Notes: generated by a model from the sequence alone, not told the origin. A DNA stretch of 64,000 bases from an uncultured Acidobacteriota bacterium (GCA_963749835.1 CAVVOD010000003.1:656721-720720), one strand, 5' to 3'. Shown: positions 2,128 through 48,999, numbered from the stretch's first letter. A program made the numbers and translations.

Positions 2128-2898
2128 ATGTCCGGTGGACGCGGTATCGACAGTCTCTCCCAGTGGCTGCGACTGCTTCTGGGGTTGAGTGTGATCTTTG
2201 GGCTGTTTCAATGGTCGGCCGTGGCTCTCGCCAGCAATCGCGGGGAGGCCGGCCTGATCGTGGGCCTGATCGTGGTCGGTGGGACCATTGCTGCCGAGTG
2301 CCTGCTGTTCGGACGGCCACTCGTCGCCGCGGCTCGAACGCTTGGACTCGGACCGCCTCGTCCTCGAGGGATTCTGGTCGTCGTCGGCATCGGTATCGTG
2401 CTGATCTCCGTCGTGTATATGTTCGCGCGAGCGACTGGATCATCTCTCGGTTTTTTCCCGAGTTGGGTTTCGCTCGTGCCGGGTCTGTTCGCACAAGGTG
2501 GTGTCGCTGAGGAAATCCTGTTTCGAGGTTACCTCTTTGGTCATCTGCGACGCGGACGGTCCTTTTGGCGCGCGGCCGCGCTGTCGATGCTGCCGTTCGT
2601 CGGTGTCCACCTGTTTCTGTTCTTCACGATGCCGTGGCCGATTGCGTTGGCGGCCCTGCTGCTGGCCGTGGTGCTTTCATTTCCGCTGGCTCATCTCTTC
2701 GAGATAGGCGGCGCAACGATTTGGGCGCCTGCGCTGCTCCACTTCATCATCCAGGGAACCGTCAAGGTCATCGTGGTTTCGGGCGATGATAGTTCGGCAT
2801 TCCCACTGGTGTGGATGGTGGCGAGTGCTCTCATTCCATTACTGAGCCTGCTTGTGACACGACCGCAGCCGAGGACCGAACGGGTCGATCAGAGCTGA
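2128..2898 (+). CDS. CPBP family intramembrane glutamic endopeptidase (CAAX protease-like)
   Basis: Multi-TM product with the motif EEILFRGYLFGHL and a later H-containing helix (LLHFIIQG). Start chosen at ATG 2128 (MSGGRGID...), because the upstream part of ORF 1900-2898 overlaps the previous gene. Confidence 0.85.
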   Translation: MSGGRGIDSLSQWLRLLLGLSVIFGLFQWSAVALASNRGEAGLIVGLIVVGGTIAAECLLFGRPLVAAARTLGLGPPRPRGILVVVGIGIVLISVVYMFARATGSSLGFFPSWVSLVPGLFAQGGVAEEILFRGYLFGHLRRGRSFWRAAALSMLPFVGVHLFLFFTMPWPIALAALLLAVVLSFPLAHLFEIGGATIWAPALLHFIIQGTVKVIVVSGDDSSAFPLVWMVASALIPLLSLLVTRPQPRTERVDQS

Positions 2899-5662
2899 CC
2901 AGCGTCTCCGGGCATCGTTCACTCGGTGCGCTGGCGACCGCTGGATCCCCTACGCCCCCGCAAGCGCCGAAACCGGATCGATCGCGTGTCGCCCGGCGCG
3001 CCGGAACCAGACAGGCAGCCACGGCCGCGCCAACCATCAGGACGATGGCAATCGCCAGGACCCCTGGATCCAGCGGCGAGATGGCGTGAAGCTGGCTCTC
3101 GATCGCGCGGCGCATGGCCATGATGCCGGCGATGCCGGCGAGCAGACCGAGACCGATCATCACCGCACCTTCGCGCAGCACGAGCCGGAAGATTGCCGTC
3201 CCGTCGCTGCCGAGGGCCATCCGAATCCCGATCTCGCGCGTCCGCTGCTGGACGAGTGACGCGAGCACTCCGTAGATGCCGATGACCGCGAGCAGGAGCG
3301 CGAGGAAGCCAAAGCCAAGCGTCAACACCATCGGCGTGCGGCGATCGCTCAACGACCGGCTGATCCGCTCCTCCATGGTGCGGACGTCGAAGATCGGCAG
3401 CTCGGGATCGATCTCGGCGATGGCCCGGCGAATCGGCTCGACGAGGCCGCCAGGTTCACCCGATGTCCGGATGGCAAACGCGACGTCGTCGTCCATCCTC
3501 TGCGCAAGGGGGAAATAGTACGCGCCGATTTGATCCGCGGGGTTCGCCACCCCGCGCATCTGAACGGACTCGACGATGCCGACGACATCGAAGTGCGGGG
3601 CGGCGCCCGGATCCCGGAGCGCATCCGCGGTGGGCGGTCGCCACATGCGCTGGCCGACGGCCCCCCCGTCGGGCCAGAAACGCCGCGCGAGACGCCGGTC
3701 GATCACGATGACCGGACGTCCCTCCGCGATGTCGCGGTCGTCGAAGCCTCGTCCTTCGATGATGCGGATGCCCATCGAGTCGAAGTAGCCGGGCGTGACG
3801 ACACTCTGCGAGGGGGAGACGACGGACTCGCCCGGACGCGGCACGTAGCCTTCGGGAAAGATCGCCTGGCGGCTGTAGTCACCGCCGAATGGAATGTAGT
3901 TCGTGATCCCGACGCTCTCGACACCGGGCAGGGCTCGAAGACGCGCGAGCGCCCGATCGAAGAAGCTCCGGCGCGCGGCATCGTCGTCGTAGCGGCCAGT
4001 GCCTGGCAGATCGACCCGCGCCGTGAGCACGCCGCGCGGCTCGAACCCGGGATCGATGGCGAGCAGCTCGCGAAAGCTGGCCAGCAGGAGACCCGCGCCG
4101 GCCAGCAACACGAGCGCCATCGCGATCTGCGTCACCACGAGGGCCTGACGCGCCCGGCGCACGCTTCGACTGGCCGTGCCGGATCGCCCCTCGTCGCGGA
4201 GCACGTCGGTCGGGCTCACGTGGAAGATGCGCACAGCTGGCAGTAACGCCATCAGTGCTCCCACGAGCAGGGCAACACCCATGGTGAACACCATCGCCGT
4301 GCCGTCGAGCCGGATTTCTCCGGACCGCGGCAGCGTTGCAATGCCGATGGCACCGAGTCCGCCCAGAGCAGCCGACGCGATCAGCCATCCAAGGAGGCCG
4401 CCCAACCCTGCGAGCAGCAGGCTCTCGATCGCGATCTGGCGAACGATCTGTGCGCGCGATGCGCCGAGCGCGACACATGTGGCCATCTCACGTCCGCGCG
4501 CCGTCGCACGCATCAACACGAGGTTGGCCACGTTCACCGCGCCGATGAGCAGCACGCAGGTGACACCGCCCCACAGCAGGAAGAGGATGCCGCGCATATC
4601 CCGGACCAGCTCCTCCTGAAAGACGCGGACGGGCGTGTGGAAGCCGGCGTCCAGAAGCAGTGGCTTCAGGTCGGGCGTGCGATCCAGATTGCGCTGGTTG
4701 AGCGCGTCGATGCGCGCCTGTGCATGCGCAAGCGTCACCCCTGGCTGCAGACGAGCGAGCATGGTCCATCGGTTGTTGAGGTGATATCGCTGGCGCTGTT
4801 CCGGCGTGAACGCGAGCGGCGTCCACAAACGGGGCTCCTGATTGCGGAGCGGGAACGACGCAAACTCTGTGGGCATGACGCCCACGATCGTGTAGGGCTT
4901 GCCGTCGAGACGCAGGTCACGGCCAATTGCCGTCGGGTCCCCGCCGAAGAGCTCCTGCCAGAGATTAAAACTCAACAGGACGACCTGATCCTGCCCGGGC
5001 TCCCCCTCCGCCTCGGTAAACGTCCGACCGAGCATGGCGCGCACACGAAGGAGATGAAACAGCGACGGCGTCGCCTGGACTCCCTCGATACGGCGGGCTT
5101 CTCTCGGGCCACCCACGTTGTACGCCACCTCACCGTCGTACGCCGCGACGGACTCAAAGGCATCGGTCAGTGCTCGCCGATCGAAGAAGTCCGGTGGCCC
5201 GTTTCGGCCCATGGCAGCCGTCCCGGTGGCCCGTGGATAGGCGTTCCACATCGTCACGACCCGTTCCGGCTCGTCCACGGGCAGCGGCCGAAGGATCACC
5301 GAGTGCACGACGCTGAAGATCGCGGTATTGGCGCCGATGCAGAGGGCCAGCGTCGGCACGGTCGTGAAGAGAAACGCTTTCTGTTTCGCCAGCCGGCGGC
5401 ACGCAAAGCGGAGGTCCTGAACCAGCCGTTCCCACCAGACCCACATGGAGGTTTCCCGCACGTCTTCGACGACGAGCACCGGATTTCCGAAAGCCTTCAC
5501 GGCTGCGCACCGGGCCTCGTCGGGTGACAATCCGGCGCGCATGTACTCGGCGGTCGCCTCTTCCAGGTGAAATCGAATGTCGGCATCGAGCTGCGCATCG
5601 AACGCCCGACGTGTGAGCAGCGCTCGAATGCCGGTCCGCATGACGTAGATCCAGCGCAACAT
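2831..5662 (-). CDS. ADOP-type duplicated MacB/FtsX-like permease (3'-terminal frameshift)
   Basis: 943-aa ORF with two FtsX-type 4-TM halves, each preceded by a large periplasmic domain. The N-terminus MLRWIYVMRTGIRALL...DIRFHLEE is family-typical. After ...PARRATR the frame departs from the family C-terminus. Skipping one base near 2983 gives IDPVSALAGA-stop at 2950-2952, matching the other copies (VDPMVALRWE, VDPVVALRADV). Confidence 0.9.
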   Translation of the reverse strand: MLRWIYVMRTGIRALLTRRAFDAQLDADIRFHLEEATAEYMRAGLSPDEARCAAVKAFGNPVLVVEDVRETSMWVWWERLVQDLRFACRRLAKQKAFLFTTVPTLALCIGANTAIFSVVHSVILRPLPVDEPERVVTMWNAYPRATGTAAMGRNGPPDFFDRRALTDAFESVAAYDGEVAYNVGGPREARRIEGVQATPSLFHLLRVRAMLGRTFTEAEGEPGQDQVVLLSFNLWQELFGGDPTAIGRDLRLDGKPYTIVGVMPTEFASFPLRNQEPRLWTPLAFTPEQRQRYHLNNRWTMLARLQPGVTLAHAQARIDALNQRNLDRTPDLKPLLLDAGFHTPVRVFQEELVRDMRGILFLLWGGVTCVLLIGAVNVANLVLMRATARGREMATCVALGASRAQIVRQIAIESLLLAGLGGLLGWLIASAALGGLGAIGIATLPRSGEIRLDGTAMVFTMGVALLVGALMALLPAVRIFHVSPTDVLRDEGRSGTASRSVRRARQALVVTQIAMALVLLAGAGLLLASFRELLAIDPGFEPRGVLTARVDLPGTGRYDDDAARRSFFDRALARLRALPGVESVGITNYIPFGGDYSRQAIFPEGYVPRPGESVVSPSQSVVTPGYFDSMGIRIIEGRGFDDRDIAEGRPVIVIDRRLARRFWPDGGAVGQRMWRPPTADALRDPGAAPHFDVVGIVESVQMRGVANPADQIGAYYFPLAQRMDDDVAFAIRTSGEPGGLVEPIRRAIAEIDPELPIFDVRTMEERISRSLSDRRTPMVLTLGFGFLALLLAVIGIYGVLASLVQQRTREIGIRMALGSDGTAIFRLVLREGAVMIGLGLLAGIAGIMAMRRAIESQLHAISPLDPGVLAIAIVLMVGAAVAACLVPARRATRDRSGFGACGGVGDPAVASAPSERCPETLVSSDRPVRSSAAVVSQAGSVME

Positions 5663-5682
5663 GAATCAGGCCCCGCCCGCGC

Positions 5683-6012
5683 CTACGTGGCGCGGATTGC
5701 AAGATTGATGGCTCCCGACAGTCGATCCCACGTCTCCAGTTCCTTCTTGAGGTGGGCGCGGCCCGAACGCGTGAGCGAGTAGAACTTCACGTCCCGGTTG
5801 GACTCGGTCTGCCCGACGCGCGCGGCGATCCAGCCCTGACGCTCGAGGCGATACAGCGCCGGATACAGCGAACCCTGCGGGACCTTCAACACGTCTCCGG
5901 ATACCTGTTGAATGCGCTTCGCGATGGCCCAGCCGTGCATGGGTTCGAGCGTGATCGCCTTGAGGATCAGGAAGTCGAGCGTGCCCTGGACGAGGTCGAT
6001 CGGTTTACCCAT
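5683..6012 (-). CDS. PadR family transcriptional regulator (acidobacterial ADOP-associated type)
   Basis: MGKPIDLVQGTLDFLILKAITLEPMHGWAIAKRIQQVSGDVLKVPQGSLYPALYRLERQGWIAARVG...KFYSLTRSGRAHL is a canonical PadR winged helix. It ends 20 nt upstream of the ADOP start at 5662. Confidence 0.9.
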   Translation of the reverse strand: MGKPIDLVQGTLDFLILKAITLEPMHGWAIAKRIQQVSGDVLKVPQGSLYPALYRLERQGWIAARVGQTESNRDVKFYSLTRSGRAHLKKELETWDRLSGAINLAIRAT

Positions 6013-6058
6013 CTGTCTACTCTGACAATCTACAATAAGACAGTCATTGTAGACTGTC
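6013..6058 (-). promoter_or_regulatory. AT-rich nested inverted repeats abutting the PadR start codon (candidate PadR operator)
   Basis: TCTACAAT (6029-6036) / ATTGTAGA (6046-6053) and GACAGTC (6039-6045) / GACTGTC (6052-6058) are perfect inverted repeats. CTGTCTAC (6013-6020) pairs 7/8 with 6049-6056. The region is conspicuously AT-rich in a GC-rich genome. Confidence 0.4.
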
Positions 6059-6281
6059 AAGGTATCGCTCCAGCTGAGATCGCATCGGCGGCGTACCGAG
6101 TCCTTCATCCCACTTTTCCAGGCCTGCGCCGCGCTGCCGACATGGACGTCGCGGATGCGCAGCTCGCCGGGAGATAATCTGAAATGGACATTCGCATCCC
6201 GCTCTCCAGCAGCAGGGCACCGCTCGACGCCGTCGGGCCGTCCGAGACCGCCTCGGGCCTGGCGGGCGACGCAGGAGGACC

Positions 6282-7100: not shown

Positions 7101-7204
7101 CGATGCGGAGCCGTCAGCCGCTGACCCGACTATTCTGAGTTCTTGCCTTTCCGTGCGACCCGTGATGATCTCTGGCGGCGGTGGGACCCGCGGAGGGAGG
7201 CCTG

Positions 7205-9697
7205 ATGTCGAACGAAACGTCAATGACACGAGGGTCAGCTGTCGAGCGCATCGCCGGCGTCTGGCGCGAACATGCGCTCGCGGCGCGGCGCCTGGCCAAG
7301 AACACCGGTTTTACCATCGTCGTTGCCCTGACGCTTGGACTGGCTATCGGCGGCAACGCCGCTATCTACAGCGTCGTGAGCGGCGTGCTGTTGAAGCCGC
7401 TCCCCTACCCCGACCCCGATCAGCTCGTTCGGATCTTCGCGCAGCATCCACGCTTCAACGACGTGCCGCTGACGATGTCCGACCTTCAGGCCTTTCGACA
7501 GGCACAGCACGTATTCCAGGGGATGGCCGCCTACTACCGTGAGGGCCATGAATTCAACGGCTCCGCCGGACCGGAGAATCTCGAGGGCCTCTTTGTGTCG
7601 GGAGGCTATTTCGAGCTGCTTGGCGCCCGCGCCGCGCTCGGCGGGACGTTCAGCAGCGACGACGAGCGGCCCGGCGCTGCCGATCGGGTCGTCCTGAGCG
7701 ACCGCATCTGGCGCACGCGTCTGGGCGCCGACCCGTCGATCGTCGGGCGCACGATCAACCTCTCGCGGCGACCGTTCGTGGTCGTGGGCGTGATGCCGCC
7801 GGGTGTCGAGCACGTCGGCGGGAAGCAGCGCTCGCTGCCGCACGGGGAGACGGCAGACTTCTGGATCCCGCTGACGATCAATCCGGCAAACCTGAACCGG
7901 ACCGCGCGGTTTCTGAACACGGTGGGCCGTCTGCGCAGCGGTATTTCCGTCGAACGGGCGAACGCCGAGCTGGATCGCCTCGCCAGCATTCAGGAGCAGC
8001 AGTGGCCGGAGACACACGCGTCGTGGCGGGCCACGGCGGTGCCGCTGATGAACGAGATCGTGGGACCGGCGCGTCCGGTGCTGCTGGCCATTTTCGGGGC
8101 CGTCGCGTGCGTCCTGCTGATTGCCTGCGGCAACGTCGCGTGTCTGACGCTGGCGCGATCGGTCGGACGCAGCCGCGAGCATGCGGTACGCGCAGCGCTG
8201 GGCGCGAGCCGTGGCCGGATTGCGCGCGAGATCTTCGTCGAGTCGTGGCTGCTCGCCTTGCTCGGCGCCTGTCTTGGTGTCCCGCTCGCCATCGCGGGCC
8301 TGCAGGTCTTGATCGCTCTGGCGCCGCCTCACCTGCCGCGCTTGCACGCGATCACAGTGGACGCGGGCATGCTCCTGTTCGGCGTCGCGCTGACGTTCGC
8401 GACCGGCCTGCTCTGCGGCGTGCTTCCGGCGTGGTATGGCGGCCGAACCAATCTCGAGGAGGCGCTGCGCGAAGGCGGACGCACGGGCGCGCCTGGCGGC
8501 CACAGCCTCGGCTGGCATCGTGTGCTGGTCGTCGGGCAGCTCGCCCTCTGCTTCGTGCTGTTGATCTGCGCCGGGCTGCTGGCACGGACGTTCTATCTCG
8601 TCCAGCACAATCCTGTCGGATTCCGAACGGATGGCGTACTGACCGCGACGTTCGATCTGCCTGGCGGCGTGACGCGCTACGGCCGCGACGTGGCCGAGCG
8701 CGCAGCCTTCCATCAGCGATTGCTCACGCGGCTGCGCGAGCAGCCCGGCGTCATCTCGGCGGGATCGGCTGCCCGGTTGCCCTTTGCCGCACAGCTCGAC
8801 AGCACGGACTCCCAGGGTCTTGTCCGATTCATGCTGGCAGAAAGGCCCGTCCCACCGGACGCGCGGCCGTTCGCCCGCATGGAGATCGTGTCGACCGGTT
8901 ACCTGGAGACCCTCGGCGTCCCGATTCTGGAAGGCCGGGGGTTCGACGCCCGAGAAACGCTGGGCAGTGCCCCGGTCGCGCTCGTCAATCAGGAGGTGGT
9001 CCGCCGTTACTTTCCGGGAGAGACCCTCGTCGGCAAGAGTCTCGCGGGCGGACGACGGGCGCCCACGATCGTCGGCGTGGTTGCAGACGTCAAAGCGACC
9101 GCCGTGGCGACTCGCCCGGAACCGATCGTCTACACACCAATGGAGCAGAGCCCGTTGTTCCGTACGCGGCTAGCCGTACGGACGCACGGGGATCCCCAGG
9201 CGCTGCTGCCCACGATCCAACGGCTGGTGAGCTCGATCGATCCCGATCTTCCGGTGTTCGAGGTGAAGCCTCTCGCGCAGATTGCCGCCGATGCCGTCGC
9301 GACACAGCGATTCGCGCTGTGGCTGTTCGGGCTGTTCGCCGCGCTCGCGCTCCTCCTCAGCGCGCTCGGCGTGTACGGCGTGCTGGCGTACGCGGTCGCG
9401 TACCGTTTGCCGGAGTTTGGCATACGTGCCGCCCTGGGCGCGAGCCCCGGACAACTGCTCGCGATGGTGCTCCGGCAGGGCCTTCGCCTGGGAACGATGG
9501 GCATTGCCACGGGCATCGGCATGGCGCTGCTGGTCACCCGCTGGCTTCAAGGCCTGTTGTTTGGCGTCCAACCGTTCGACGCACCGACGTTTGCCGTCGT
9601 CGCGGTCCTGTTCGGCATGATCGTTCTCGCGGCGTGTCTGCTGCCCGCCCGCCGCGCCGGGCGCGTCGATCCGATGACCACGATCCGCAATAGCTAG
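7205..9697 (+). CDS. ADOP-type duplicated MacB/FtsX-like permease
   Basis: Start at ATG 7205, which follows GGAGGGAGG. Two FtsX halves are present. The C-terminus is LPARRAGRVDPMTTIRNS. There is no adjacent PadR gene and no ATPase gene. Confidence 0.9.
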   Translation: MSNETSMTRGSAVERIAGVWREHALAARRLAKNTGFTIVVALTLGLAIGGNAAIYSVVSGVLLKPLPYPDPDQLVRIFAQHPRFNDVPLTMSDLQAFRQAQHVFQGMAAYYREGHEFNGSAGPENLEGLFVSGGYFELLGARAALGGTFSSDDERPGAADRVVLSDRIWRTRLGADPSIVGRTINLSRRPFVVVGVMPPGVEHVGGKQRSLPHGETADFWIPLTINPANLNRTARFLNTVGRLRSGISVERANAELDRLASIQEQQWPETHASWRATAVPLMNEIVGPARPVLLAIFGAVACVLLIACGNVACLTLARSVGRSREHAVRAALGASRGRIAREIFVESWLLALLGACLGVPLAIAGLQVLIALAPPHLPRLHAITVDAGMLLFGVALTFATGLLCGVLPAWYGGRTNLEEALREGGRTGAPGGHSLGWHRVLVVGQLALCFVLLICAGLLARTFYLVQHNPVGFRTDGVLTATFDLPGGVTRYGRDVAERAAFHQRLLTRLREQPGVISAGSAARLPFAAQLDSTDSQGLVRFMLAERPVPPDARPFARMEIVSTGYLETLGVPILEGRGFDARETLGSAPVALVNQEVVRRYFPGETLVGKSLAGGRRAPTIVGVVADVKATAVATRPEPIVYTPMEQSPLFRTRLAVRTHGDPQALLPTIQRLVSSIDPDLPVFEVKPLAQIAADAVATQRFALWLFGLFAALALLLSALGVYGVLAYAVAYRLPEFGIRAALGASPGQLLAMVLRQGLRLGTMGIATGIGMALLVTRWLQGLLFGVQPFDAPTFAVVAVLFGMIVLAACLLPARRAGRVDPMTTIRNS

Positions 9698-9700
9698 AGA

Positions 9701-9970: not shown

Positions 9971-10094
9971 TCCCGCAGCGTGCCTTGTCGCGATAGACGC
10001 ACGCATCAGTGTCGATATGCGTGCCGGAGTGCTGATACCCCTCGCGAAGTTGGTGTCGCTCCGTTCACACAGGTTCTGTCCGGCCGCAAAGCCG

Positions 10095-11174: not shown

Positions 11175-11187
11175 GGGGGTGAAGCGA

Positions 11188-11419
11188 TCAGTCCTCGGTG
11201 AGCGCCACGGCGCGAATCGGTTGTCCGCACCCGTTGCGAATCTTCAGCGGCAGCCCCACGAAGGTGTAGGCGCGGCGTGGAATGCGATCGAGGTTGCGCA
11301 GGCTCTCGAAGGAAGACGGAGCCCGGCTTGAGCGTGAGCCGTTCGGCGACCAGATTTGCGAGCATGTTCGGCAGAATGTCCCGGTCCTTCATCACCCCAA
11401 CGCTATCCGGTTCGCTCAC
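11188..11419 (-). pseudogene. short cyclase-family (kynurenine formamidase-like) C-terminal fragment, frameshifted
   Basis: The GTG at 11419 overlaps the upstream stop (GTGA). It reads VSEPDSVGVMKDRDILPNMLANLVAERLTLKPGSVF. After a 1-nt shift near 11311 (the TTCC/TTC region) it reads FESLRNLDRIPRRAYTFVGLPLKIRNGCGQPIRAVALTED-stop. This tail resembles the C-terminus of putative cyclases. At about 77 aa it is too short for a full enzyme. Confidence 0.4.
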
Positions 11420-13872: not shown

Positions 13873-14245
13873 CCTTGTGTCCTGACCGCGTGGATCGTGG
13901 CATAAGTCCCGGAGCGCGGCGCCCGCCTGGGCCCCCAACGCGGCTGCCGCGTTGGGGAGCCCCTGGCCAGGCGCGACAACCGAGAATACTAGCCGTATTT
14001 GAGGGAGGAGCAACGCCGCCAGGCCGGGGCCCCCGCCGCGCGTGTTTTGCGCGGTGGGGTGGAGAAGGGATGCCCCGCCCGGGAATTATGTCGCGAACCA
14101 CGCGGTCAGGACACTAGCTGCGCCCGAGACGATGAGTCAAGCGAGGCGGAGCGTCCGCCGGGGTGCGCGCCCAGCGATGCGTCCGCGTCGTGTCAAGCGT
14201 GCGAGGATGAATGGAGCGAGGACGCACAGCCCGAGGAGAACGCCC

Positions 14246-21100: not shown

Positions 21101-21357
21101 CGGTCGTAGGTTTTGAATTCGTGACCGTCGAAACGGCTGAGACCCTCCGCCGTGCAGAGCCACAGAAAGCCGCGAGAATCGCGCATGAGGCAGTACACGC
21201 GATCGTGAGGGAGCCCCTCCGTAATGGCATAGCGGCTGATCGGGAGTCGCTCGGCGTGTGCAATCCCGCCGGCGAAACCGATCGTCAGGAGAATGGCTAG
21301 CCACGCTCGAGGTGGCGCTGGGGGAGGCATACGGCCAAGCCGCGCGTTGCGGTTCAA
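18194..21357 (-). pseudogene. two-component sensor histidine kinase with periplasmic beta-propeller/Y_Y_Y region, interrupted by two frameshifts
   Basis: Three overlapping ORFs (20200-21357, 19650-20960, 18194-19888) read as one protein. The order is signal/TM, propeller repeats (GLPHDRVYCLMRDSRGFLW..., RIWAATDDGVFV, GNVWVGT), a Y_Y_Y-like region, a TM segment, a HisKA_3 H-box (LHDDIGSGLSQI) and HATPase_c. Frame switches occur near 21048 and near 19940. This may be an assembly indel artefact. Confidence 0.8.
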
Positions 21358-37375: not shown

Positions 37376-37726
37376 ATGACCGGACACCGACATCCGGAGC
37401 CGCCGGCCCTCGAACCGCACTGGTTCCAGATGCTGCTGGCGCTCGCGGACCAGGATCTGCACGGGCTCGGCATCATGAACGAAGTCCTGGAGCGAACCGG
37501 CGGCCGGATGCGGCTGTGGCCGGCGATGCTGTACCGGAACCTCGCACGGCTGGCGGACCTCGGGCTGGTTGCCGAAGTGGCCCAGCCGCCCGGCGCACGC
37601 GCCGGGGGAGGACGGCCGCGTTTCTATCACATCACGCCGGCGGGCCGCCGCGCCTGTGCGGCAGAGGCGGAGCGCCTCGCCGGATTCGTGGAGGCCGCCC
37701 GCCGCAAGCGGCTGCTGAAAGCGTGA
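37376..37726 (+). CDS. PadR family transcriptional regulator
   Basis: FQMLLALADQDLHGLGIMNEVLERTGGRMRLWPAMLYRNLARLADLGLV...RFYHITPAGRRA. Its stop overlaps a GTG of the downstream ADOP reading frame (GTGA at 37723-26). Confidence 0.9.
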   Translation: MTGHRHPEPPALEPHWFQMLLALADQDLHGLGIMNEVLERTGGRMRLWPAMLYRNLARLADLGLVAEVAQPPGARAGGGRPRFYHITPAGRRACAAEAERLAGFVEAARRKRLLKA

Positions 37727-37731
37727 ACCGG

Positions 37732-40461
37732 ATGCGCCGCCTCCTTCTCCTGCTGCTCCCGCGTGATGCTGGCGTTCACCAGCACGAGCTCGACCAGCAA
37801 TTCGAGTACTGCGTGCGGCGCGAGCGCGCGCGCCTCGGACGGCTGGGCGTTCCCTACGCGTGGGCGAGGCTCGTCCTCGACGTCGTGATGACGTCGCTGC
37901 TCCTCCGCCGCGACGCCTGGCACCGGCGGCGCATCAACCGCCTCGGCGCTCAGGTGACTTCTGGAGATTCGATCATGATCAGACTGCGCGAAGATATCCG
38001 CTACTCGGTCCGTGTTCTTCTTCGAAGCCCCGGTTTCTCGGCGGCAGTCGTCATCGCGCTGGGGCTGGCGATCGGCGCCACGACGAGCGTGTTCACCGTG
38101 GTGAATGCGGTGCTCCTGAAGTCGCTGCCGTTCAGGGACGCATCGCGGCTGGTCATGGTCTTTGAGGAAATTCCTGGGACGAACTCGGGTCCGATCTCGT
38201 TTTCCGCGCCGGATTTCAGAGCGTTCCAGGAACGCGCACGGAGCTTCGACGGCCTCGCGGCCTACGCCACGAAGACCTACGAGCTGTCGGGCATCGATCA
38301 ACCCGAGCGCGTGGCCGCGCTTCGCGCCTCGGCGGCGCTGTTCGACGTCCTCGGTGCCGCACCCGTCCTGGGGCGCGCATTCACGCGGGAGGAGGACGAG
38401 GGGCGGATCCCGGTGGCCGTGCTGAGCGACGGATTGTGGCGGCGATCGTTCGGCGCCGATCCGTCGGTGATCGGCCGCGCGGTGATGATCGATCGCCGTG
38501 CGCATACCGTCGTCGGCGTGATGCCCCGGACGTTCGTGTTCCCCAGCAAAGGTCCGCTTCACAACAACGAGCCGGCCGACCTCTTCGTGCCCGTCAGCTT
38601 CACGAGCGCGGAGCTGAACGGCTTCGCCAGCATGTACAACAACAGCGTCATCGGGCGCCTGAAGCCGGACGTCACGCTGCAACAGGCGGATGCAGACACG
38701 CGCGCCGTCGTCGCCCGGCTCGTGAGCGAGGTCTATCCCGCTCCGATGGGGGACGGCGGGTTCAGGCTCTCCGGATCGGTGAGCCCGCTGCGGACCGAAA
38801 CCGTCGGCCGGGTGGAACGCCTGCTCGAGATCCTGTTCGTCGCCGTGATGATTGTGCTGCTGATCGCCTGCGCCGACGTCGCCAGCCTGATGCTGACGCG
38901 CGCCGTTGCGCGAAGCCGCGAAGTCGCCGTGCGGTCGGCACTCGGCGCCAGCCGCGCGCAGCTGGCGCGGCAGGTGCTCACCGAAGCCGCGCTGCTGTCG
39001 CTCGGGGGCAGCGTGCTTGGCGTGCTCATCGCCTATGCGTCCACGGAAACGATCGCGCGGGTGGCGCCCCCGACCATCCCCAGGCTCAACGAACTCGCGC
39101 TGGACTGGCGCGTGATGACGTTCGCGATCGTCAGCTCGATGCTCACGGCGCTCGCCTGCGGCTGCCTGCCGGCCCTCGAGCTCTCGCGCCGGCCGTCCGC
39201 GGACGCGCTGAAGGACGGCGGACGGAGCGGAACGGCCGGCAGGCGTCAGAAACGGCTGTTCGGAGCGCTCGTCACGGCGCAGTTCGCCCTGGCCGTCGTA
39301 CTCCTCGTTGCCGGTGGCCTGCTGATTCGCAGCTTCAACCGGCTGATGGCGGTCGACCCCGGCTTTCGATCCGAGCGCGTGATCACGCTCGCGACGAGCC
39401 TGCCGGCGCTCGCGTATCCCGACGCGCAGTCAATCCGGGCGTTCTATCAACGGCTGCTCGAGCAGGTCGAGGCGCTGCCGGGCGTCAAGGCATCTGCGGC
39501 ATCGACCGACCTGCCGCTGTCGATTCGCGAGCGCCGAGCGTTCACGATCGAGAATCCGCCGCCGCTGCCCGAGTCCGTCCCGAAAGTGATCGCACAGGAT
39601 TGGGTCGTCGGGCAGTACTTCGAGGCGCTGGGGATCACGCTCCGACGTGGACGCTTCCTCTCCAGCCAGGACACGGGACGATCCGAGCCTGTCGTGGTCG
39701 TCAATGAAGCGTTGGCGAAGGCCTTTTGGGCGAATCTGGACCCGGTGGGACAGCGAATCGCATTCGGCGGCGCACGCGATCACGGTCCATGGATGCGCAT
39801 CGTCGGGATCGTGGCTGACGTCAAGCAGGGACCGCTGGGAACGCCGGTCGTTCCGCAGACCTATACGCCCTGGCTGCAGACCTCCAACGGAATGGTGGCG
39901 GACAACGTGGTCGGAGCCCTGCGCGCGTTGAAGGTCATTGTTCGCACCGACAGCGATCCGCTGGCGGTTGCCGGCGCCATCCAGGCCCAGGTGCGGGCCA
40001 TCGACGGCTCGCTGCCGATCTCGCGCCCCCGCACGATGGAAGAAGTCGTTCACGGATCGCTCGAGCCGCAGCGCTTCAACACGGTGCTGCTCGCGGCATT
40101 CGCGGCCGTTGCCGTCACACTGGCCGGCGTCGGGATCGCGGGCGTGCTTGCAACCGCGGTGTCACGGCGCACGCAGGAGATCGGCGTGCGCATGGCGCTC
40201 GGCGCCGAGCGGCCGCACGTGCTCAGGATGATCATCCGTCAAGGCATGGCGCTGGTGCTCGCGGGCGTGGCGGTCGGCGTCCCCGCCGCGTTCCTCGCGG
40301 CGAGGTTCATGTCGAGCCTGCTGTTCGGCGTTGGCCCGCGCGACGCAATCTCTTTTGTCGGGGCAACAACCCTGCTGCTGGCGGTGGCGCTCGTCGCCTG
40401 CTATCTGCCCGCGCGACGCGCGACCCGGGTCGATCCGATGGTCGCGCTCAGATGGGAGTAG
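37732..40461 (+). CDS. ADOP-type duplicated MacB/FtsX-like permease with N-terminal prefix domain
   Basis: Start at ATG 37732, or at the GTG 37723 coupled to the PadR stop. The track ORF (from 37312) runs over the PadR gene in another frame. Two FtsX halves are present. The C-terminus is LPARRATRVDPMVALRWE. Confidence 0.9.
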   Translation: MRRLLLLLLPRDAGVHQHELDQQFEYCVRRERARLGRLGVPYAWARLVLDVVMTSLLLRRDAWHRRRINRLGAQVTSGDSIMIRLREDIRYSVRVLLRSPGFSAAVVIALGLAIGATTSVFTVVNAVLLKSLPFRDASRLVMVFEEIPGTNSGPISFSAPDFRAFQERARSFDGLAAYATKTYELSGIDQPERVAALRASAALFDVLGAAPVLGRAFTREEDEGRIPVAVLSDGLWRRSFGADPSVIGRAVMIDRRAHTVVGVMPRTFVFPSKGPLHNNEPADLFVPVSFTSAELNGFASMYNNSVIGRLKPDVTLQQADADTRAVVARLVSEVYPAPMGDGGFRLSGSVSPLRTETVGRVERLLEILFVAVMIVLLIACADVASLMLTRAVARSREVAVRSALGASRAQLARQVLTEAALLSLGGSVLGVLIAYASTETIARVAPPTIPRLNELALDWRVMTFAIVSSMLTALACGCLPALELSRRPSADALKDGGRSGTAGRRQKRLFGALVTAQFALAVVLLVAGGLLIRSFNRLMAVDPGFRSERVITLATSLPALAYPDAQSIRAFYQRLLEQVEALPGVKASAASTDLPLSIRERRAFTIENPPPLPESVPKVIAQDWVVGQYFEALGITLRRGRFLSSQDTGRSEPVVVVNEALAKAFWANLDPVGQRIAFGGARDHGPWMRIVGIVADVKQGPLGTPVVPQTYTPWLQTSNGMVADNVVGALRALKVIVRTDSDPLAVAGAIQAQVRAIDGSLPISRPRTMEEVVHGSLEPQRFNTVLLAAFAAVAVTLAGVGIAGVLATAVSRRTQEIGVRMALGAERPHVLRMIIRQGMALVLAGVAVGVPAAFLAARFMSSLLFGVGPRDAISFVGATTLLLAVALVACYLPARRATRVDPMVALRWE

Positions 40462-40481
40462 GTGATTCGACGCGTCGCTTC

Positions 40482-40542
40482 AACGGCTTACGGTCTCATC
40501 GCGCCGGTACCTGGCCTGGTCGTACGGCTCGTGCCAGGCAGT
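40482..40542 (+). repeat. right copy of imperfect direct repeat: orphan 3'-end fragment of a sugar-dehydrogenase paralog
   Basis: Encodes AYGLIAPVPGLVVRLVPGS, compared with NYGLIAPVPGWVVRLMPVQ-stop at 33932-33995. It begins 20 nt after the ADOP stop. No upstream dehydrogenase body is present. Confidence 0.8.
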
Positions 40543-40707
40543 CGCCTTGACGGCGCGGGCGAAATTCCGGTGATCCAGTCTCACCGACCTCGGCCGTGGG
40601 ACAATGTGGGTTCCGGGCGAATTCTGACGCTCGCGTACCTAATACTGCTGCGGATGTCGATCCGCGCGTGCCTCCGCGTCAACATGGCAGACAAGGAGGA
40701 AAGAGCC

Positions 40708-41058
40708 GTGAAATACATTCTGCTGATCTACGGGGACGAGCGCGAGTGGACGTCGATGTCGAAGGAGGATATGGCCAAAGTCTACGAGGAGCACGGCGCC
40801 TACTCAGACGCGATGGTCAAGGCCGGTGTGATGCGGGGCGGTTACGAGTTGCAGCCCGTTGCGACGGCAACCAGCCTGCGCTTCACCAACGGCAAGGCGA
40901 AGACGTTCGACGGTCCATTCGCCGAGACGAAGGAGCAGCTCGGCGGTTATTACATCATTGAAGTGGACACGCTCGACCAGGCAATCGAGTGGGCTGAGAA
41001 GATGCCGGCGATGGCTTCGGGCACGGTTGAGATCCGTCCGCTCGGCATGGGCTCGTGA
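40708..41058 (+). CDS. YCII-related (DGPF) domain protein
   Basis: VKYILLIYGDEREWTSMSKEDMAKVYEEHGAYSDAM...FDGPFAETKEQLGGYYIIEVDTLDQAIEWAEKMP. The GTG at 40708 lies 8 nt after AGGAGG (40694-99). ATG 40684 is an alternative start. Confidence 0.85.
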   Translation: MKYILLIYGDEREWTSMSKEDMAKVYEEHGAYSDAMVKAGVMRGGYELQPVATATSLRFTNGKAKTFDGPFAETKEQLGGYYIIEVDTLDQAIEWAEKMPAMASGTVEIRPLGMGS

Positions 41059-41076
41059 CGCCCCCGGCCTCTCCGC

Positions 41077-42381
41077 ATGCTGCTCACCCGCATCGTCGAT
41101 AAGGTCGCCCGAACGGACGGTCCGCGCGTGCTCGCCGGGCTGATCCGCCTGACCGGAGGCGACTTCGAGGCGGCTGAGGACGCGCTCCAGGAGGCCTACG
41201 CGCGCGCGCTGGTCGTATGGCGCCGGGATGGGCTCCCGGCGCAGCCCGGCGCGTGGATAAACACCGTGTCGCGTCGCGTGCTCCTCGATGCGCTTCGACG
41301 CGGGGCCACGCGCCGCAAACGGTGTGCGTCGCTCGACGATGAAGTCGCGGACACCACCTGGATCGAGATGCCCGCCGCTGATGCTGACGGTCCTGCGCCC
41401 GTCGACCCTTCAGGCATCGACGACGACCGGCTTCGGCTGCTCTTCGTGTGCTGCCATCCTGCGCTCTCGCCAGAGGCGCAGAAGACGCTCGCGCTGCGAA
41501 CCCTCGGCGGCCTGACGACACGACAGATCGCGCGCGCGTTCGTGGAGCCTGAACCGACGACCGCGCAACGTCTGGTCCGGGCCAAGCGGAAGATTCGCGA
41601 TACGCGGATCTCGTACGAGGTGCCGCCGCGGGCAAGGCTCCCTGAGCGCATCGATGTCGTCCTGTCGGTGCTCTACCTGATTTTCAATGAGGGGTACGCG
41701 TCCACGGACGCGCCCTCGCTCGTCCGTCCGGATCTGATGACGGAAGCGATCCGTCTCGCCCGCCTTGCGGTGGAGCTGCTGCCGGACTCGGCCGAAGCTC
41801 GTGGCCTGCTTGCGCTGACGCTCCTCACTGACGCCCGTCGTCCTGGCCGCCTCACCGAGCACGGGGAGTTCGTGCCGCTCGAGGAACAGGACCGTAGTCT
41901 CTGGAATCACGGGCAGATCGACGAAGGCGTGAAGCTTCTGGACGAGGCCCTCGCACACGGCGCGCCAGGGCCCTATCAGATTCAGGCGGCAATTGCGGCG
42001 CTCCACTCGCGCGCCCACACCGCCGCCGCGACGGACTGGCCACAGATCGCCGCGCTCTACCGCGCCCTGCTGCAGCAGCTGCCGACCCCAGTCGTCGAAC
42101 TGAACGCCGCCGTTGCGCTGGGTCTTGCGACCGACGTCGATCGCGCGCTGAATTGGATCGCGCGGCTGGAACAGCACCCGGACCTCGCGGGCTACCACCT
42201 CCTGCCCGCGTCGCAGGCGGATCTGCTGAGGCGTCAGGGACGATTCGAAGCCGCGTCCCGCGCCTATCGCCGCGCGCTGACGCTCGTCACGAATCCGGCG
42301 GAACGGCGGTATCTGGACCGGCGCCTCGCGGAGACCCTGCGGGGCGAAGACAAAGCGACTTGCACCCATGTCGCCAGATAA
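41077..42381 (+). CDS. ECF sigma factor with long C-terminal TPR-like extension (ECF42-like)
   Basis: Sigma-2 region (FEAAEDALQEAYARALVVW...PGAWINTVSRRVLLDALRR) and sigma-4 region (LRTLGGLTTRQIARAFVEPEPTTAQRLVRAKRKI), plus a ~230-aa helical extension. It lies immediately downstream of a DGPF gene. Confidence 0.85.
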   Translation: MLLTRIVDKVARTDGPRVLAGLIRLTGGDFEAAEDALQEAYARALVVWRRDGLPAQPGAWINTVSRRVLLDALRRGATRRKRCASLDDEVADTTWIEMPAADADGPAPVDPSGIDDDRLRLLFVCCHPALSPEAQKTLALRTLGGLTTRQIARAFVEPEPTTAQRLVRAKRKIRDTRISYEVPPRARLPERIDVVLSVLYLIFNEGYASTDAPSLVRPDLMTEAIRLARLAVELLPDSAEARGLLALTLLTDARRPGRLTEHGEFVPLEEQDRSLWNHGQIDEGVKLLDEALAHGAPGPYQIQAAIAALHSRAHTAAATDWPQIAALYRALLQQLPTPVVELNAAVALGLATDVDRALNWIARLEQHPDLAGYHLLPASQADLLRRQGRFEAASRAYRRALTLVTNPAERRYLDRRLAETLRGEDKATCTHVAR

Positions 42382-42570
42382 ATTGTTTGACGTTATTGAA
42401 ACCCAGGATGACGGAGGAGTACCAGTGCCGTCGAGGTGATCGAGAAGACCGATCGAGACGGCATACCGATCCGACCATGGGCCCCATGCCCAGCCGCTCG
42501 CAGACGAGACCGATCTGCGTCGGCAGAGCGCGATGGCATTGCTGAAACCAAATAGCCGGTGCCCGATCGA

Positions 42571-45027
<2,457 letters not shown>

Positions 45028-45147
45028 TCCTCCCTGACGTGAACTACGACACGGGACCCCAATCGTTCCACAAGACAGTGCGCAGCGACACCGCGGTTCA
45101 GAAAGGCTAAGCTGTCCCTCGCAGTCGACAACACGGAGAGGTGAACG

Positions 45148-46059: not shown

Positions 46060-46239
46060 GTCGTCGACAGAACCAGCGATTCTCGCTGCGCTCTTCGCAC
46101 GCCGCACAACCACGTGTGGACGGTGCGGGACGTTCACCATACGCGCCATCTCGAGGTTGGTTCGCGGCAATGGTCTCCTGCGTTGCTGTACGGCGATCAC
46201 ACAGGACAGCGGCCGCTGCGAGCAAGGCCGAGGGCGGAG

Positions 46240-48999
46240 CTACACATCCGCTCGCAAGGCGACAACGGGATCGACGCGCGCGGCGCGGCGCGCTGGAAGA
46301 TATATCGCCAGCAGCATCACGGCTGCCAGCGCTCCTGACACGGCCGCATACGTCATGGGATCCGTCGGGCTCACGCCGAACAGCAGCGCGCGCATCACCC
46401 GGCTGAGCGCGAGCGCCGCACCGACGCCGAGCGCGATGCCGATGGTCGTCAGCCAGAGGCCGTGCCGCAGAAACATCCTGCGAACATCCCCAATCTGCGC
46501 GCCGAGCGCCATGCGGATGCCGATCTCTCGCGTGCGCTGTGCGGCGATATAGGCGATGACGCCATAGAGCCCGACGATGCCGAGCAGCAGCGCCATGAGC
46601 GCGCCGATGACGAGCATCGTGAGCGTGAAGGACGTCTGGGCCATCGAGTCCGCCCGTATCTCGTCGAGAGTCTGTACGTTCGCCAGCGGGAGACTGGGAT
46701 TCACGGACCAGACCGCCTGCTCGAGCTCGTGCAGGAAGCCCGGCGAATGGATCCGGTCCGATCGGACGGCGTACGACATCGTGCGGGAAACGAACGGCCC
46801 GTCCACCAGCCGCTTCGTGGCCATCGGCCAGTACGCGATCGCGGGTGCGGGCTGATTCAGCCCATCATCGCGCTCGTCCCCGACGATCCCGATGATCTCC
46901 CGCCAGGGCTGCCTGGGGCTGACGCGCATGCGCTTGCCGAGGGCGTCCGCCGGATTCGCCCAGTACGCGCGGGCGAGCGACTCGGACACGACCACAACGA
47001 GGGCGTCCTGGTAAATGTCCGTCCAGGTGACGCTGCGTCCAACGAGCACCCGGTTGCCCATCGCCTGGAAGTATCCAGGTGCGATGAATTTGTGGCGACG
47101 AAACTGGCGAGCCCGGGCGCCAGTCTCAGGGAATGCTTCGACCAGGATCGAGCCGTTGAAGTAGATCCCATCCATCGTCATCGACGAGGCCAGTCCGACC
47201 GACTGCACGCCGGGGAGCTGTCGCAGGCGTTCGGCAATCTGCTCGTGCGTTCGTGCGGTCTGCTGCGCATCGCTGACGAGCGTCTGGGGGATCGCCACGC
47301 GGAACGTCTGCAGCTGTTCGGGACGCGTGAAGCCGGGATCGACCCGACGCAACGCGAGGAACGTGCGGATCATCAGGCCCGACACGACCAGGAGCACGAG
47401 GGCCAGCGCGACCTGCGCCACGACGAGCGTGTTGCGCGTGCGGTGCCGTTCCGGACCCCCGCTCCCCGCCCGGCCGCTTTCCTGAAGCGCTGTCAGACTC
47501 GGCGCCCCGAACTTGAGCACGCCGACCAGACCGAAGAAGAATCCCGCGACGAGCGCGGTCCCGAGCGTGAACAGCAAGACGACCGGGTGAAATCCGATCT
47601 CGTCGACGCGCGGTAGTCCGGACGGCGCCAACCAGACCAGCAGGCCAATGCCCGCACGGGCGAGCGCCAGGCCCAGCAGGCCGCCGGCGAGCCCGAGCGT
47701 CACGCATTCGGTGAGCAGCCCGCGGGCCACCCGGCCTCGGCTCGCACCCAGCGCCGATCGGACGGCGAGCTCGCGCCGGCGACCCTCGGCCCGCACGAGG
47801 AAGAGGTTCGCCACGTTGGCGCAGGCCATCAACAGGACGATCCCGACCGTGCCGAACAGGATCCACAGCACGCGTCCGACATCGCCAATCACGTCGTCCG
47901 ACAGCGGATGGACATGGGGCTTCAACCGTATCGGCTGCTCGCCCGCCTGCGGTGGGAACCGCTCGAACACGCGCGGAATCAGGCGTGCCACATCGTCGTT
48001 CGCCTGCGCGATCGTGACGCCAGCCTTGAGCCGAGCAATACCGAAATAACTGAAGTTGCCCAGCGCGGGGTCGGCGCGATTGAATCGGAATGGCAGCACC
48101 ACCGAGGGATCCGTGTCGAGGAACCTGAACGACGCGGGCAGGACACCGATCACTTCGTGCGGCTTGCCGTCGATGGTCACCATCTGCCCGACAATGTCCC
48201 GGTCGCCGCCGAACCGTCGCTGCCAATAGCCGTAGGTCAACACCGTCCGATCCGGACTGCCAGGCGCGTCGTCTGCCTCGGTGAACAGCCGGCCGAGCAG
48301 CGGCGTCACTTTCAGAATCGGCAGCGTGCCGTCGGTGACGTACAGCGTTTTAACGCGTTCGGGCTCGCCCCGACCCGTGATCGAGACATCGGGAAACGGG
48401 ACCCACAAGCCGACGTCCTCGAACACACGGCCATCGTCACGATAGGTGAAGTAGGTCGAGGGGCTTTGCTGGAACTTGTCGAAGCCCAACTCGTGGGCCG
48501 TGTGCCACATGCCGACCAGGCGGTCCGGCTCGGTGAATGGGAGTGGCTTCAACAGCACGCCGTAGATCACGCTGAAGATCGCGGTCGTGGCGCCGATTCC
48601 GAGCGCCAGCGTCAGCACGGCCATCGCCGCGAACCCCGGCTGCTTCAAGGACATCCGCATCGTGTAGCGCAGGTCCTGCCAGAGATCGGTCAGCACGTGT
48701 CCGGTCCGGACTCCCGGCGTGATTGATGGCGGGACGTGCGCTTGCCGCAGCGGCGCCATCAGCTGCGCGAGGACGTTCCCACTGGTGAACTCGGCGAGCG
48801 CCAGGCGCGTCGCCGCCTCCGGTGACGCCCCTCCTGCGATCAACTCCCGATAGCGGTCGGCCAGATGCTGCGTGAGTTCGTCGACGATCTCCGCCTCACG
48901 GGCGGGCGAGAGATGCAACGAGGCCAGCCGTGTGCGTACCTCGCGCGCCCATTGCGCCGTGAGCGCCCCGTCGTTTGTCGGAGTCGAGGGATCAGGCAT
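46240..48999 (-). CDS. ADOP-type duplicated MacB/FtsX-like permease (intact)
   Basis: 919 aa with an N-terminal prefix domain (…SPAREAEIVDELTQHLADRYREL…) and two FtsX halves. The C-terminus is LPARRAARVDPVVALRADV. Its ATG overlaps the end of the degraded PadR frame (ATGCCTGA). Confidence 0.9.
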   Translation of the reverse strand: MPDPSTPTNDGALTAQWAREVRTRLASLHLSPAREAEIVDELTQHLADRYRELIAGGASPEAATRLALAEFTSGNVLAQLMAPLRQAHVPPSITPGVRTGHVLTDLWQDLRYTMRMSLKQPGFAAMAVLTLALGIGATTAIFSVIYGVLLKPLPFTEPDRLVGMWHTAHELGFDKFQQSPSTYFTYRDDGRVFEDVGLWVPFPDVSITGRGEPERVKTLYVTDGTLPILKVTPLLGRLFTEADDAPGSPDRTVLTYGYWQRRFGGDRDIVGQMVTIDGKPHEVIGVLPASFRFLDTDPSVVLPFRFNRADPALGNFSYFGIARLKAGVTIAQANDDVARLIPRVFERFPPQAGEQPIRLKPHVHPLSDDVIGDVGRVLWILFGTVGIVLLMACANVANLFLVRAEGRRRELAVRSALGASRGRVARGLLTECVTLGLAGGLLGLALARAGIGLLVWLAPSGLPRVDEIGFHPVVLLFTLGTALVAGFFFGLVGVLKFGAPSLTALQESGRAGSGGPERHRTRNTLVVAQVALALVLLVVSGLMIRTFLALRRVDPGFTRPEQLQTFRVAIPQTLVSDAQQTARTHEQIAERLRQLPGVQSVGLASSMTMDGIYFNGSILVEAFPETGARARQFRRHKFIAPGYFQAMGNRVLVGRSVTWTDIYQDALVVVVSESLARAYWANPADALGKRMRVSPRQPWREIIGIVGDERDDGLNQPAPAIAYWPMATKRLVDGPFVSRTMSYAVRSDRIHSPGFLHELEQAVWSVNPSLPLANVQTLDEIRADSMAQTSFTLTMLVIGALMALLLGIVGLYGVIAYIAAQRTREIGIRMALGAQIGDVRRMFLRHGLWLTTIGIALGVGAALALSRVMRALLFGVSPTDPMTYAAVSGALAAVMLLAIYLPARRAARVDPVVALRADV

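Follow-up and report, generated by a model that had tools for sequence, protein, structure and literature searches.

The stretch of DNA presented above, 64,000 nucleotides from an uncultured Acidobacteriota bacterium (GCA_963749835.1, CAVVOD010000003.1:656721-720720) and hereafter called the window, carries a cluster of genes for MacB-like permeases of the ADOP family (TIGR03434, acidobacterial duplicated orphan permease), whose members are usually not accompanied by a gene for an ATPase motor. The cluster is most likely an ordinary one, composed of six apparently working copies and one genuine C-terminal fragment. It is real, of an already known kind, and constitutes a further instance of TIGR03434 in a Vicinamibacterales-like soil genome; the nearest named relatives of the permeases are found in the Vicinamibacterales (Acidobacteriota), and the G+C content of the window is 65%. 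The overall explanation that we consider best, and to which we give somewhat better than even credence, combines permeases driven by ATPases that are encoded elsewhere, an N-terminal prefix by which some copies would be wired to a PadR regulator, and a sixth copy that is intact in the organism. The window itself is of little importance, since the multiplicity of the copies, the absence of a linked ATPase gene, and the PadR neighbors are already part of the published description of the family.

An ADOP profile was built and run on every stop-to-stop piece of all six reading frames, and it recovered exactly seven ADOP-homologous regions in the window, as listed below. This is the number of paralogs, five of them near full length, that had been reported at these locations in a preliminary description of this DNA. 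Full-length matches to TIGR03434 were obtained for five open reading frames (ORFs), with 730-896 bits against a curated cut-off of 622.3 bits. Each of the five intact copies contains two MacB_PCD (PF12704) and two FtsX (PF02687) domains, and the internal duplication that defines an ADOP, namely two FtsX and two MacB-type periplasmic domains in one polypeptide, is therefore present; the proposed match to the published family definition holds. Six-frame profile searches of the window revealed no further ADOP or PadR remnants.

2831-5662, minus strand: ADOP A1, 943 amino acids, 827.5 bits on TIGR03434, with an N-terminal perm_prefix_1 (HAAS-like)
7205-9697, plus strand: ADOP A2, 830 amino acids as called in the public record, 852.7 bits on TIGR03434, without prefix and without PadR
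29386-32058, minus strand: ADOP A3, 890 amino acids, 729.8 bits on TIGR03434, with a weak prefix and without PadR
37732-40461, plus strand: ADOP A4, 909 amino acids, 896.3 bits on TIGR03434, with an N-terminal extension of about 85 amino acids that has no recognized domain
46240-48999, minus strand: ADOP A5, 919 amino acids, 879.2 bits on TIGR03434, with an N-terminal perm_prefix_1 and a weak Pfam HAAS match
42571-45027, minus strand: sixth ADOP copy, belonging to a prefix-less orthogroup of 812 amino acids, in pieces in three frames with 12 single-base insertions
26325-26852, minus strand: ADOP C-terminal fragment that covers 728-902 of the 905 profile positions, lacks the normal stop, and is interrupted by an in-frame stop at 26535-26537

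The gene calls of the public record agree with the coordinates of the preliminary description for A1, A2, A4, and A5. The A1 protein is present in the record residue for residue, the 830-residue product of A2 and the product of A4 are on record exactly, and A4 and A5 are each found in a 90%-identity cluster of 27 members. The score of A2 was obtained from the ORF 7181-9697, where TIGR03434 starts at residue 28, and the match to the profile built here begins at position 76. The five intact copies share 29-37% pairwise protein identity, and the best DNA self-match in the window, that of its closest pair (the sixth copy and A5), reaches 64-71% identity. Assembly duplication, which the preliminary description had named among the findings that would refute it, is ruled out by these values.

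Frameshifts, decay and history of the copies

The region 42571-45027 had been described as a heavily frameshifted copy in decay. It is indeed broken in three frames; the frameshifts are, however, very probably a consensus artefact of the assembly and not decay, as judged from comparison with orthologous sequences, and the copy is probably intact in the organism, which would bring the number of working ADOPs to six. A frameshift-aware protein-to-DNA alignment was written for the purpose and used for the sixth copy and for a sensor kinase gene of the window. Against an intact homolog, it places about 12 frame changes in the sixth copy, all in one direction and without any stop codon. In a database search, the stitched translation falls in a uniform orthogroup of 812-residue proteins with up to 84% identity. 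Comparison with two intact orthologs (L084, with 90.7% DNA identity, and L085; such numbers denote loci used for comparison) identified 12 single-base insertions, at positions 44954, 44931, 44860, 44616, 44594, 44002, 43986, 43919, 43888, 43035, 42778, and 42749, with no deletions and no longer indels. Once the 12 bases are removed, an ORF of 814 residues results, with 847.6 bits on TIGR03434 and 91% identity to the protein of L084. Homopolymer slippage is ruled out as the origin of the insertions, because the inserted base is unlike both of its neighbors in 11 of the 12 cases.

The substitutions in the sixth copy bear the mark of purifying selection. Codon changes unique to its lineage comprise 36 synonymous and 16 non-synonymous changes, a ratio like that of a working ortholog (67:32) and unlike the neutral expectation of about 74% non-synonymous changes (p=9e-11), and 154 of the 228 differences from L084 lie at third codon positions. 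Drift that was long enough for 12 indels is expected to leave dozens of unconstrained substitutions, and the sixth copy shows none.

A second gene in the window is broken in the same manner. This is a sensor kinase of about 970 residues at 18194-21357 on the minus strand (Reg_prop, Y_Y_Y, HisKA_3, and HATPase_c domains), which lies in three frames with two +1 events, near 21050 and 19937, and no stops; the public record lists a 564-amino-acid piece of it as a protein. A tblastx comparison of the kinase region with the fetched loci gave high-GC noise only and was replaced by the frameshift-aware alignment. Taken together, all 14 frameshift events in the sixth copy and the kinase have the same direction (p=6e-5). 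Two additional comparison loci were found via the 90%-identity cluster of a 441-residue ORF, which contains short fragments from two other very long contigs with nearby ENA accessions. Both of these long-contig assemblies, which come from the ENA accession range to which the window belongs, carry single-base insertions without deletions in their ortholog of the sixth copy, and none of the positions is common with the 12 of the window:

L086 2871-5318: ortholog of the sixth copy with nine insertion-only lesions
L087 2458-4909: ortholog of the sixth copy with 13 insertion-only lesions

The lesions in L086 and L087 suggest a systematic insertion artefact of that assembly pipeline. Orthologs of the sixth copy are intact, at exactly 2439 nucleotides, in a Joint Genome Institute (JGI) contig and in another ENA assembly. 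The artefact is preferred because its rival needs three independent, insertion-only, selection-free decays of the same gene in three assemblies. A plausible cause would be reads of closely related populations piling onto a well-conserved gene; in six of the 12 cases, as counted against three orthologs only, the inserted base is the alternative allele of the neighboring column, a suggestive but not conclusive hint at a mixed-population consensus. Insertion-only frameshifts in long-contig metagenome assemblies may thus pass for pseudogene decay, and the signs of such an artefact that can be read without access to the reads are one-directional indels, intact purifying selection, and lesion positions that are unshared among sister assemblies. 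A split aminopeptidase gene is also present in one of the comparison loci (L087 1187-2016).

The sixth copy has its closest relative among species-representative genomes in a metagenome-assembled genome (MAG) of the Bryobacteraceae (L009 10001-12436, 67-72% identity). Representative Vicinamibacterales genomes provide relatives of only about 44% identity and unbinned soil contigs relatives of up to 84%. The relative in the Bryobacteraceae bin could reflect inter-order transfer, or gaps in binning or sampling.

Real decay in the window appears to be modest and limited to one ADOP C-terminal fragment and one PadR gene. The graded decay of the preliminary description leaned on the frameshifted copy and finds no support once that copy is read as a probable artefact. 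The fragment at 26325-26852 consists of the C-terminal 175 residues of an ADOP, with the closing part of the second periplasmic domain, the final three transmembrane (TM) helices, and the second coupling helix. It scores 94.7 bits on the built profile when its stop is read through, and TIGR03434 matches it in pieces of 76 and 40 bits, below member length. This fragment had been taken for a half-length remnant and amounts to about one-fifth of a gene. The other traces of loss or rearrangement are a PadR pseudogene and the tail of a GSDH-like gene:

48992-49215, minus strand: PadR pseudogene upstream of A5, with a 130-bp internal deletion of the helix-turn-helix region and a CAA-to-TAA change at 49055-49057
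40477-40536, plus strand: GSDH-like stump, the last 20 codons, 16 bp past the A4 stop

The A5 orthologs in L082 (83%) and L002 (80%) are preceded by intact PadR genes, and alignment with these shows what the pseudogene has retained, namely the start codon with a palindrome over it, a TTGACT/TATAGT promoter-like pair, and the ATGCCTGA stop/start overlap that it shares with A5. Of the 102 profile positions, only 52-86 are left. The rearrangement stump that had been placed at 40482 is confirmed as a 20-codon GSDH-like tail, which matches GSDH residues 522-541 (gene 32364-33995) by tblastn with 80% identity, and 40489-40542 is 89% identical to 33939-33993 in DNA over 55 bp. The stump and the fragment indicate that rearrangement does occur. 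No Rfam families, tRNA, or transposase that could act as drivers of rearrangement were found in the window. In a related genome, IS21-like transposition genes (Mu-transposase C-terminal domain, IstB) are located 6 kb from the A5 ortholog, at L082 18340-20137.

Orthologs of A1, A4, A5, and the sixth copy are found in other metagenomes with 80-97% identity. Orthologs of A5 and of the sixth copy lie in different gene neighborhoods from genome to genome, so that synteny could not be used as a gauge of decay and the comparison was made at the gene level only. On these sequence relationships, the ADOPs appear to belong to old and conserved lineages of paralogs, subject to shuffling and now and then to loss, and show no sign of recent birth. 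The rapid birth-and-death evolution that had been suggested is not supported, in view of the low identity among the copies together with orthologs of at least 80% identity elsewhere. In the flanks of 82 other ADOP loci, the ADOP density is about 23 extra copies per Mb, from which 1.4 extra copies are predicted here and five are seen (P~0.015). The density is in the upper tail and not exceptional; in other Acidobacteriota, about 22 kb can hold six copies, or five intact ones plus a split one. In Psychroflexus torquis, ten ADOP paralogs have been described in a highly translated cluster of 42 kb, with pseudogenes and genes for ATP-binding transporters in the vicinity (PMC3914696), and Dyadobacter genomes contain 28-33 ADOP copies each (PMC11573002).

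Probable powering and proposed regulatory coupling of the permeases

The window contains no ATP-binding cassette (ABC) ATPase, as the preliminary description had stated. A tblastn search with the ATPase domain of E. coli MacB gave nothing below E=1 in the window, no strict Walker A motif is present in any of its frames, and a profile made from nine MacB/LolD-type ATPase domains and run with filters off reached 7.9 bits at best. Relatives of MacA, HlyD-type adaptors, and TolC-like proteins are likewise absent from the window. These searches are independent of frame and exclude an ATPase that is hidden by frameshifts. The question of how the permeases are energized had been left open; the missing partner stands, but relatives do carry ADOPs in operons with MacB-type ATPases. 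In L044 and L071, one ADOP each is followed within 30 bp by a MacB/LolD/DarD-type ATPase. In L054 54-21576 (Terriglobales MAG DATJSG010000030.1), an HlyD-type adaptor, a MacB/DarD-type ATPase, and five intact ADOPs plus one split ADOP are followed by a second ATPase, a TolC-like protein, and a sigma-54 response regulator, a layout which implies that two ATPase genes serve six permeases there. The ATPase-linked ADOPs of these three loci score 824-1004 bits on TIGR03434.

Variability across 116 ADOPs is lowest in the two coupling-helix segments, with entropies of 1.27 and 1.11 bits, and highest in the periplasmic domains, with 2.33 bits. The coupling-helix consensus is identical in the ATPase-linked ADOPs and in the other 109. 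An AlphaFold2 model of A5 (mean predicted local distance difference test score, pLDDT, 80.5) consists of a three-helix prefix, a disordered linker, and four TM helices, the first of which is followed by a periplasmic domain, and then the same arrangement of four helices and a domain again, with short cytoplasmic helices at residues 408-416 (TM2/3) and 823-831 (TM6/7). The best structural match of the model is E. coli YbbP (9GE6/9GE7, 900 columns), followed by MacB, a pneumococcal homolog, LolCDE, and BceB. Each ADOP is composed of two MacB-type modules (TM1, periplasmic domain, TM2-4) fused in one polypeptide, with the predicted result of an eight-helix pseudo-dimer of a type VII ABC transporter membrane domain.

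An ATPase acting in trans is favored because of the ADOP-ATPase operons in relatives and the conserved coupling helices. Two copies of a MacB/LolD-type ATPase, encoded elsewhere and common to many ADOPs, would dock on the two coupling helices. ATP binding would zip the helices together and squeeze the periplasmic domains (mechanotransmission), and compounds would be expelled or extracted from the periplasm or the outer leaflet, probably via a shared adaptor and a TolC-like duct. The variable periplasmic domains may give each paralog its own substrate range. As the operons in relatives show, ADOPs are not always orphans, and the question of their powering is directly testable via shared, unlinked MacB/LolD-type ATPases.

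Coupling to PadR regulators had been described as varied, and this is what was found, with intact regulators at A1 and A4, a broken one at A5, none at the remaining copies, and no other PadR homology in the window:

5683-6012, minus strand: PadR regulator, intact, 20 bp upstream of A1; 137.6 bits on TIGR03433 (cut-off 101.8) and 71.6 bits on Pfam PadR
37376-37726, plus strand: PadR regulator, intact but divergent, ending 6 nucleotides before the A4 ATG; 48.1 bits on Pfam PadR (gathering score 27)
6018-6064, no strand: inverted repeat with 19-nucleotide arms (6018-6036 and 6046-6064), 84% complementary, just upstream of the padR start

The divergent regulator scores 38 bits on TIGR03433, under the cut-off, and is found in a 90%-identity cluster of 16 members. 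The N-terminal prefix was assessed with NF038403 (perm_prefix_1, cut-off 30 bits) and Pfam HAAS (gathering score 27). NF038403 gave 62-67 bits for A1, 39-43 bits for A5, and 22-27 bits, under the cut-off, for A3. The first 100 residues of A4 have no family match, and no PadR homology is present upstream of A3. The copies are distributed as follows:

A1: perm_prefix_1 above the cut-off; intact PadR upstream
A5: perm_prefix_1 above the cut-off; broken PadR upstream
A3: weak prefix under the cut-off; no PadR upstream
A4: extension of about 85 residues with no recognized domain; intact, divergent PadR upstream
A2: no prefix; no PadR upstream
Sixth copy: no prefix; no PadR upstream

Prefix and upstream PadR co-occur among 111 full-length ADOPs in 82 loci (29/14/8/60, odds ratio 15.5, p=1.6e-9). 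A pairing of HAAS with PadR has been described, including FtsX/MacB-PCD fusions and an example in Acidobacterium capsulatum (PMC11237479), and we infer that perm_prefix_1 is HAAS. PadR coupling appears largely to track the prefix, with A3, which has a weak prefix and no PadR, as the exception; this association explains most of the PadR variation in the preliminary description. The prefix-bearing copies (A1, A5, and weakly A3) would be wired to a PadR repressor encoded just upstream, and the prefix would hold PadR or let it go depending on the state of the permease, by which the operon would tune its own expression. With the PadR gene upstream of A5 destroyed by a 130-bp deletion and a nonsense codon, expression of A5 is predicted to be unrepressed. 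An inverted repeat is also located at the padR start upstream of A5 (49204-49241) and is kept in L082 and L002 together with the TTGACT/TATAGT pair; this repeat and the one at 6018-6064 are candidate PadR operators.

Alternatives to the proposed trans-acting ATPases and a probably intact sixth copy

Several observations weigh against the explanation preferred here. The 64-kb window holds no ATPase, adaptor, or TolC gene, so that the partner is inferred and not found, and an ATPase gene (MacB/LolD/DarD-type) directly adjoins an ADOP in only three of 82 loci, all three among the 80 loci from species-representative genomes. The ATPase-linked ADOPs are all without prefix and PadR, and prefix-bearing copies could work differently. 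The conservation of the coupling helices could stem from a folding constraint and not from ATPase docking. In the Pfam scan of the first 100 residues, one sub-threshold HAAS match was obtained (A5, 21.9 bits compared with 27), and A4 has a PadR gene without a recognizable prefix. As regards the sixth copy, this one gene holds 12 of the window's 14 frameshift events (P~1e-15 under uniform error), a pattern that a real pseudogene too would show. This strong clustering is the chief counter-argument, and an artefact needs a local cause, such as mixed reads, to account for it. The view of the preliminary description, in which the cluster undergoes rapid birth and death and 42571-45027 is a true, heavily decayed pseudogene, draws on this bunching of frameshifts in one gene amid five intact paralogs and mostly intact neighbors. 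The frameshifts are, moreover, present in the public record itself (P0411), true decay is found nearby in the C-terminal fragment, the PadR pseudogene, and the GSDH stump, and ortholog neighborhoods are not conserved. We nevertheless regard it as very unlikely, given that all 12 lesions are single-base insertions outside homopolymer runs without deletions or stops, that the ratio of 36 synonymous to 16 non-synonymous changes departs from neutrality, and that the sensor kinase is broken in the same direction. The insertion-only lesions of the two sister assemblies, which lie elsewhere in a gene that is intact in two other orthologs, and the lack of recent birth among copies that are 29-37% identical also speak against it.

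An unlikely alternative is that ADOPs, or at least the prefix-bearing ones, are transmembrane sensors instead of transporters and need no ATPase. Their MacB-type periplasmic domains would detect a ligand or envelope damage, the helical stalk would relay the change inward, and the HAAS-like prefix would release or capture PadR, which would make a one-protein alternative to a two-component system. HAAS-PadR has been proposed as such a signaling system, FtsX/MacB-PCD fusions included (PMC11237479), and the strong prefix-PadR association agrees with it, as do the lack of prefix and PadR in every ATPase-linked ADOP and the absence of an ATPase from the window and from within about 10 kb of an ADOP in 71 of the 80 loci scanned. 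However, the padR-ADOP pairs look self-contained, with the permease as the only obvious output gene, and the prefix-less A2 and sixth copy are equally conserved without any regulator. The coupling helices, for which ATPase docking is the known role, are the most conserved segments with and without prefix alike, and signaling and transport can coexist, as in BceAB-type systems. The narrower proposal that A1, A5, and perhaps A3 would be ATPase-free signaling devices, in which mechanotransmission is reversed to control PadR via the HAAS-like prefix, strikes us as distinctly unlikely; if true, the paralog swarm would be a repertoire of extracytoplasmic sensors and not of pumps. Powering by means other than an ABC ATPase, such as the proton-motive force, or a role as passive periplasmic scaffolds or activators, likened to FtsEX for EnvC or YbbP for TesA, is highly improbable. 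Most loci have no linked ATPase and type VII relatives do act as platforms for periplasmic partners (PMC12646458), but neither the window nor the fetched loci show a conserved gene for a periplasmic partner with the copies, the type VII members covered in PMC5985334 and PMC12646458 are all ATP-energized, and the coupling helices are conserved.

Neighboring genes and known systems

The non-ADOP genes of the window encode dehydrogenases, two-component systems, a YCII and ECF-sigma pair, ribonucleotide reductase, and a metallo-beta-lactamase-fold protein; no recurring permease partner was seen among these other window genes. The dehydrogenases include two periplasmic sugar/alcohol enzymes with fused cytochrome c, and the second of their genes is divergent from A3 and represents the source family of the 20-codon stump after A4. 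The YCII and ECF-sigma pair lies between A4 and the sixth copy.

11416-14013, minus strand: dehydrogenase of the PQQ beta-propeller type with fused cytochrome c
32364-33995, plus strand: dehydrogenase of the GSDH type with fused cytochrome c
40654-42381, plus strand: YCII-domain gene and, 18 bp later, an ECF-type sigma factor (DUF6596 and TPR repeats; 33-member 90%-identity cluster)
55830-57703, minus strand: HAMP-containing ORF (56834-57703) and HisKA and HATPase_c ORF (55830-56837), with a 4-bp overlap in different frames
60337-60447 and 63278-63394: inverted pair of 117 bp, 78% identical

The ORF pair at 55830-57703 adjoins a sigma-54 response regulator (57767-59164) and comprises either two real genes or a sensor kinase that is split by a frameshift of the opposite sign. 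One arm of the inverted pair is intergenic and the other lies within a glycosyltransferase gene at the window end.

In comparison with the ADOP family as defined by TIGR03434, nothing essential differs in the window copies. Six of them score above the cut-off (the sixth after the removal of 12 bases), the five intact ones have two MacB_PCD and two FtsX domains each, and as elsewhere in Acidobacteriota many paralogs occur per genome, with a TIGR03433-type PadR beside some copies. The lack of a fused or adjacent ATPase is seen throughout the window and is not family-wide, as L044, L071, and L054 demonstrate.

MacB resembles ADOPs in its four-TM module, its Porter/Sabre periplasmic domain, and its coupling helix, and the MacB structures 5LIL, 5NIK, and 5GKO are the closest solved structures by sequence. 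The operon of some ADOP relatives (L054) also encodes an adaptor of the HlyD type, ATPases of the MacB type, and a TolC-like protein. MacB half-transporters, each with an ATPase fused at the N-terminus, pair as a homodimer, whereas an ADOP is a fused pseudo-dimer without ATPase; the ADOPs score 76-125 bits on the MacB model NF007826 against a cut-off of 966, in the permease part only (model positions about 370-648), and the MacA-type adaptor and TolC relatives of the MacAB-TolC system were not found in the window.

A1 and A5, and more weakly A3, resemble the published HAAS-PadR pair in an N-terminal three-helix prefix that may correspond to HAAS; where a PadR accompanies a copy, it has a gene of its own immediately upstream on the same strand, near or overlapping the permease gene. 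The points of difference are that Pfam HAAS is sub-threshold here, that A4 has a PadR without a recognizable prefix, and that A3 has a weak prefix without PadR. The signaling role of the pair is a published prediction and not an experimental result (PMC11237479). BceAB-type systems likewise contain a single-chain, duplicated FtsX-type permease, which has the dual role of acting on a compound outside the cytoplasm and of signaling to a regulator, and the structures 8S5G and 7TCG are among the structural matches. In contrast to the ADOPs, BceB has 10 TM helices and one large extracellular domain, is encoded next to its ATPase BceA, and signals via a histidine kinase and not via PadR.

In the YbbAP-TesA system, the type VII permease YbbP is, like the ADOPs, duplicated within a single chain and equipped with two periplasmic domains of the MacB kind. 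Its two coupling helices, at the positions where those of the ADOPs lie, each dock one YbbA ATPase subunit (PMC12646458). YbbP has 10 TM helices, with TM5-6 as the linking pair, whereas eight are predicted for ADOPs; the YbbP model NF041854 gives 17 bits for ADOP against a cut-off of 999; and ybbA (the ATPase gene) and tesA adjoin ybbP, whereas the ADOPs in the window have no ATPase or hydrolase partner. As far as the structural model goes, the resemblance in fold is real, and an ADOP may work like YbbP without being a member of its family.

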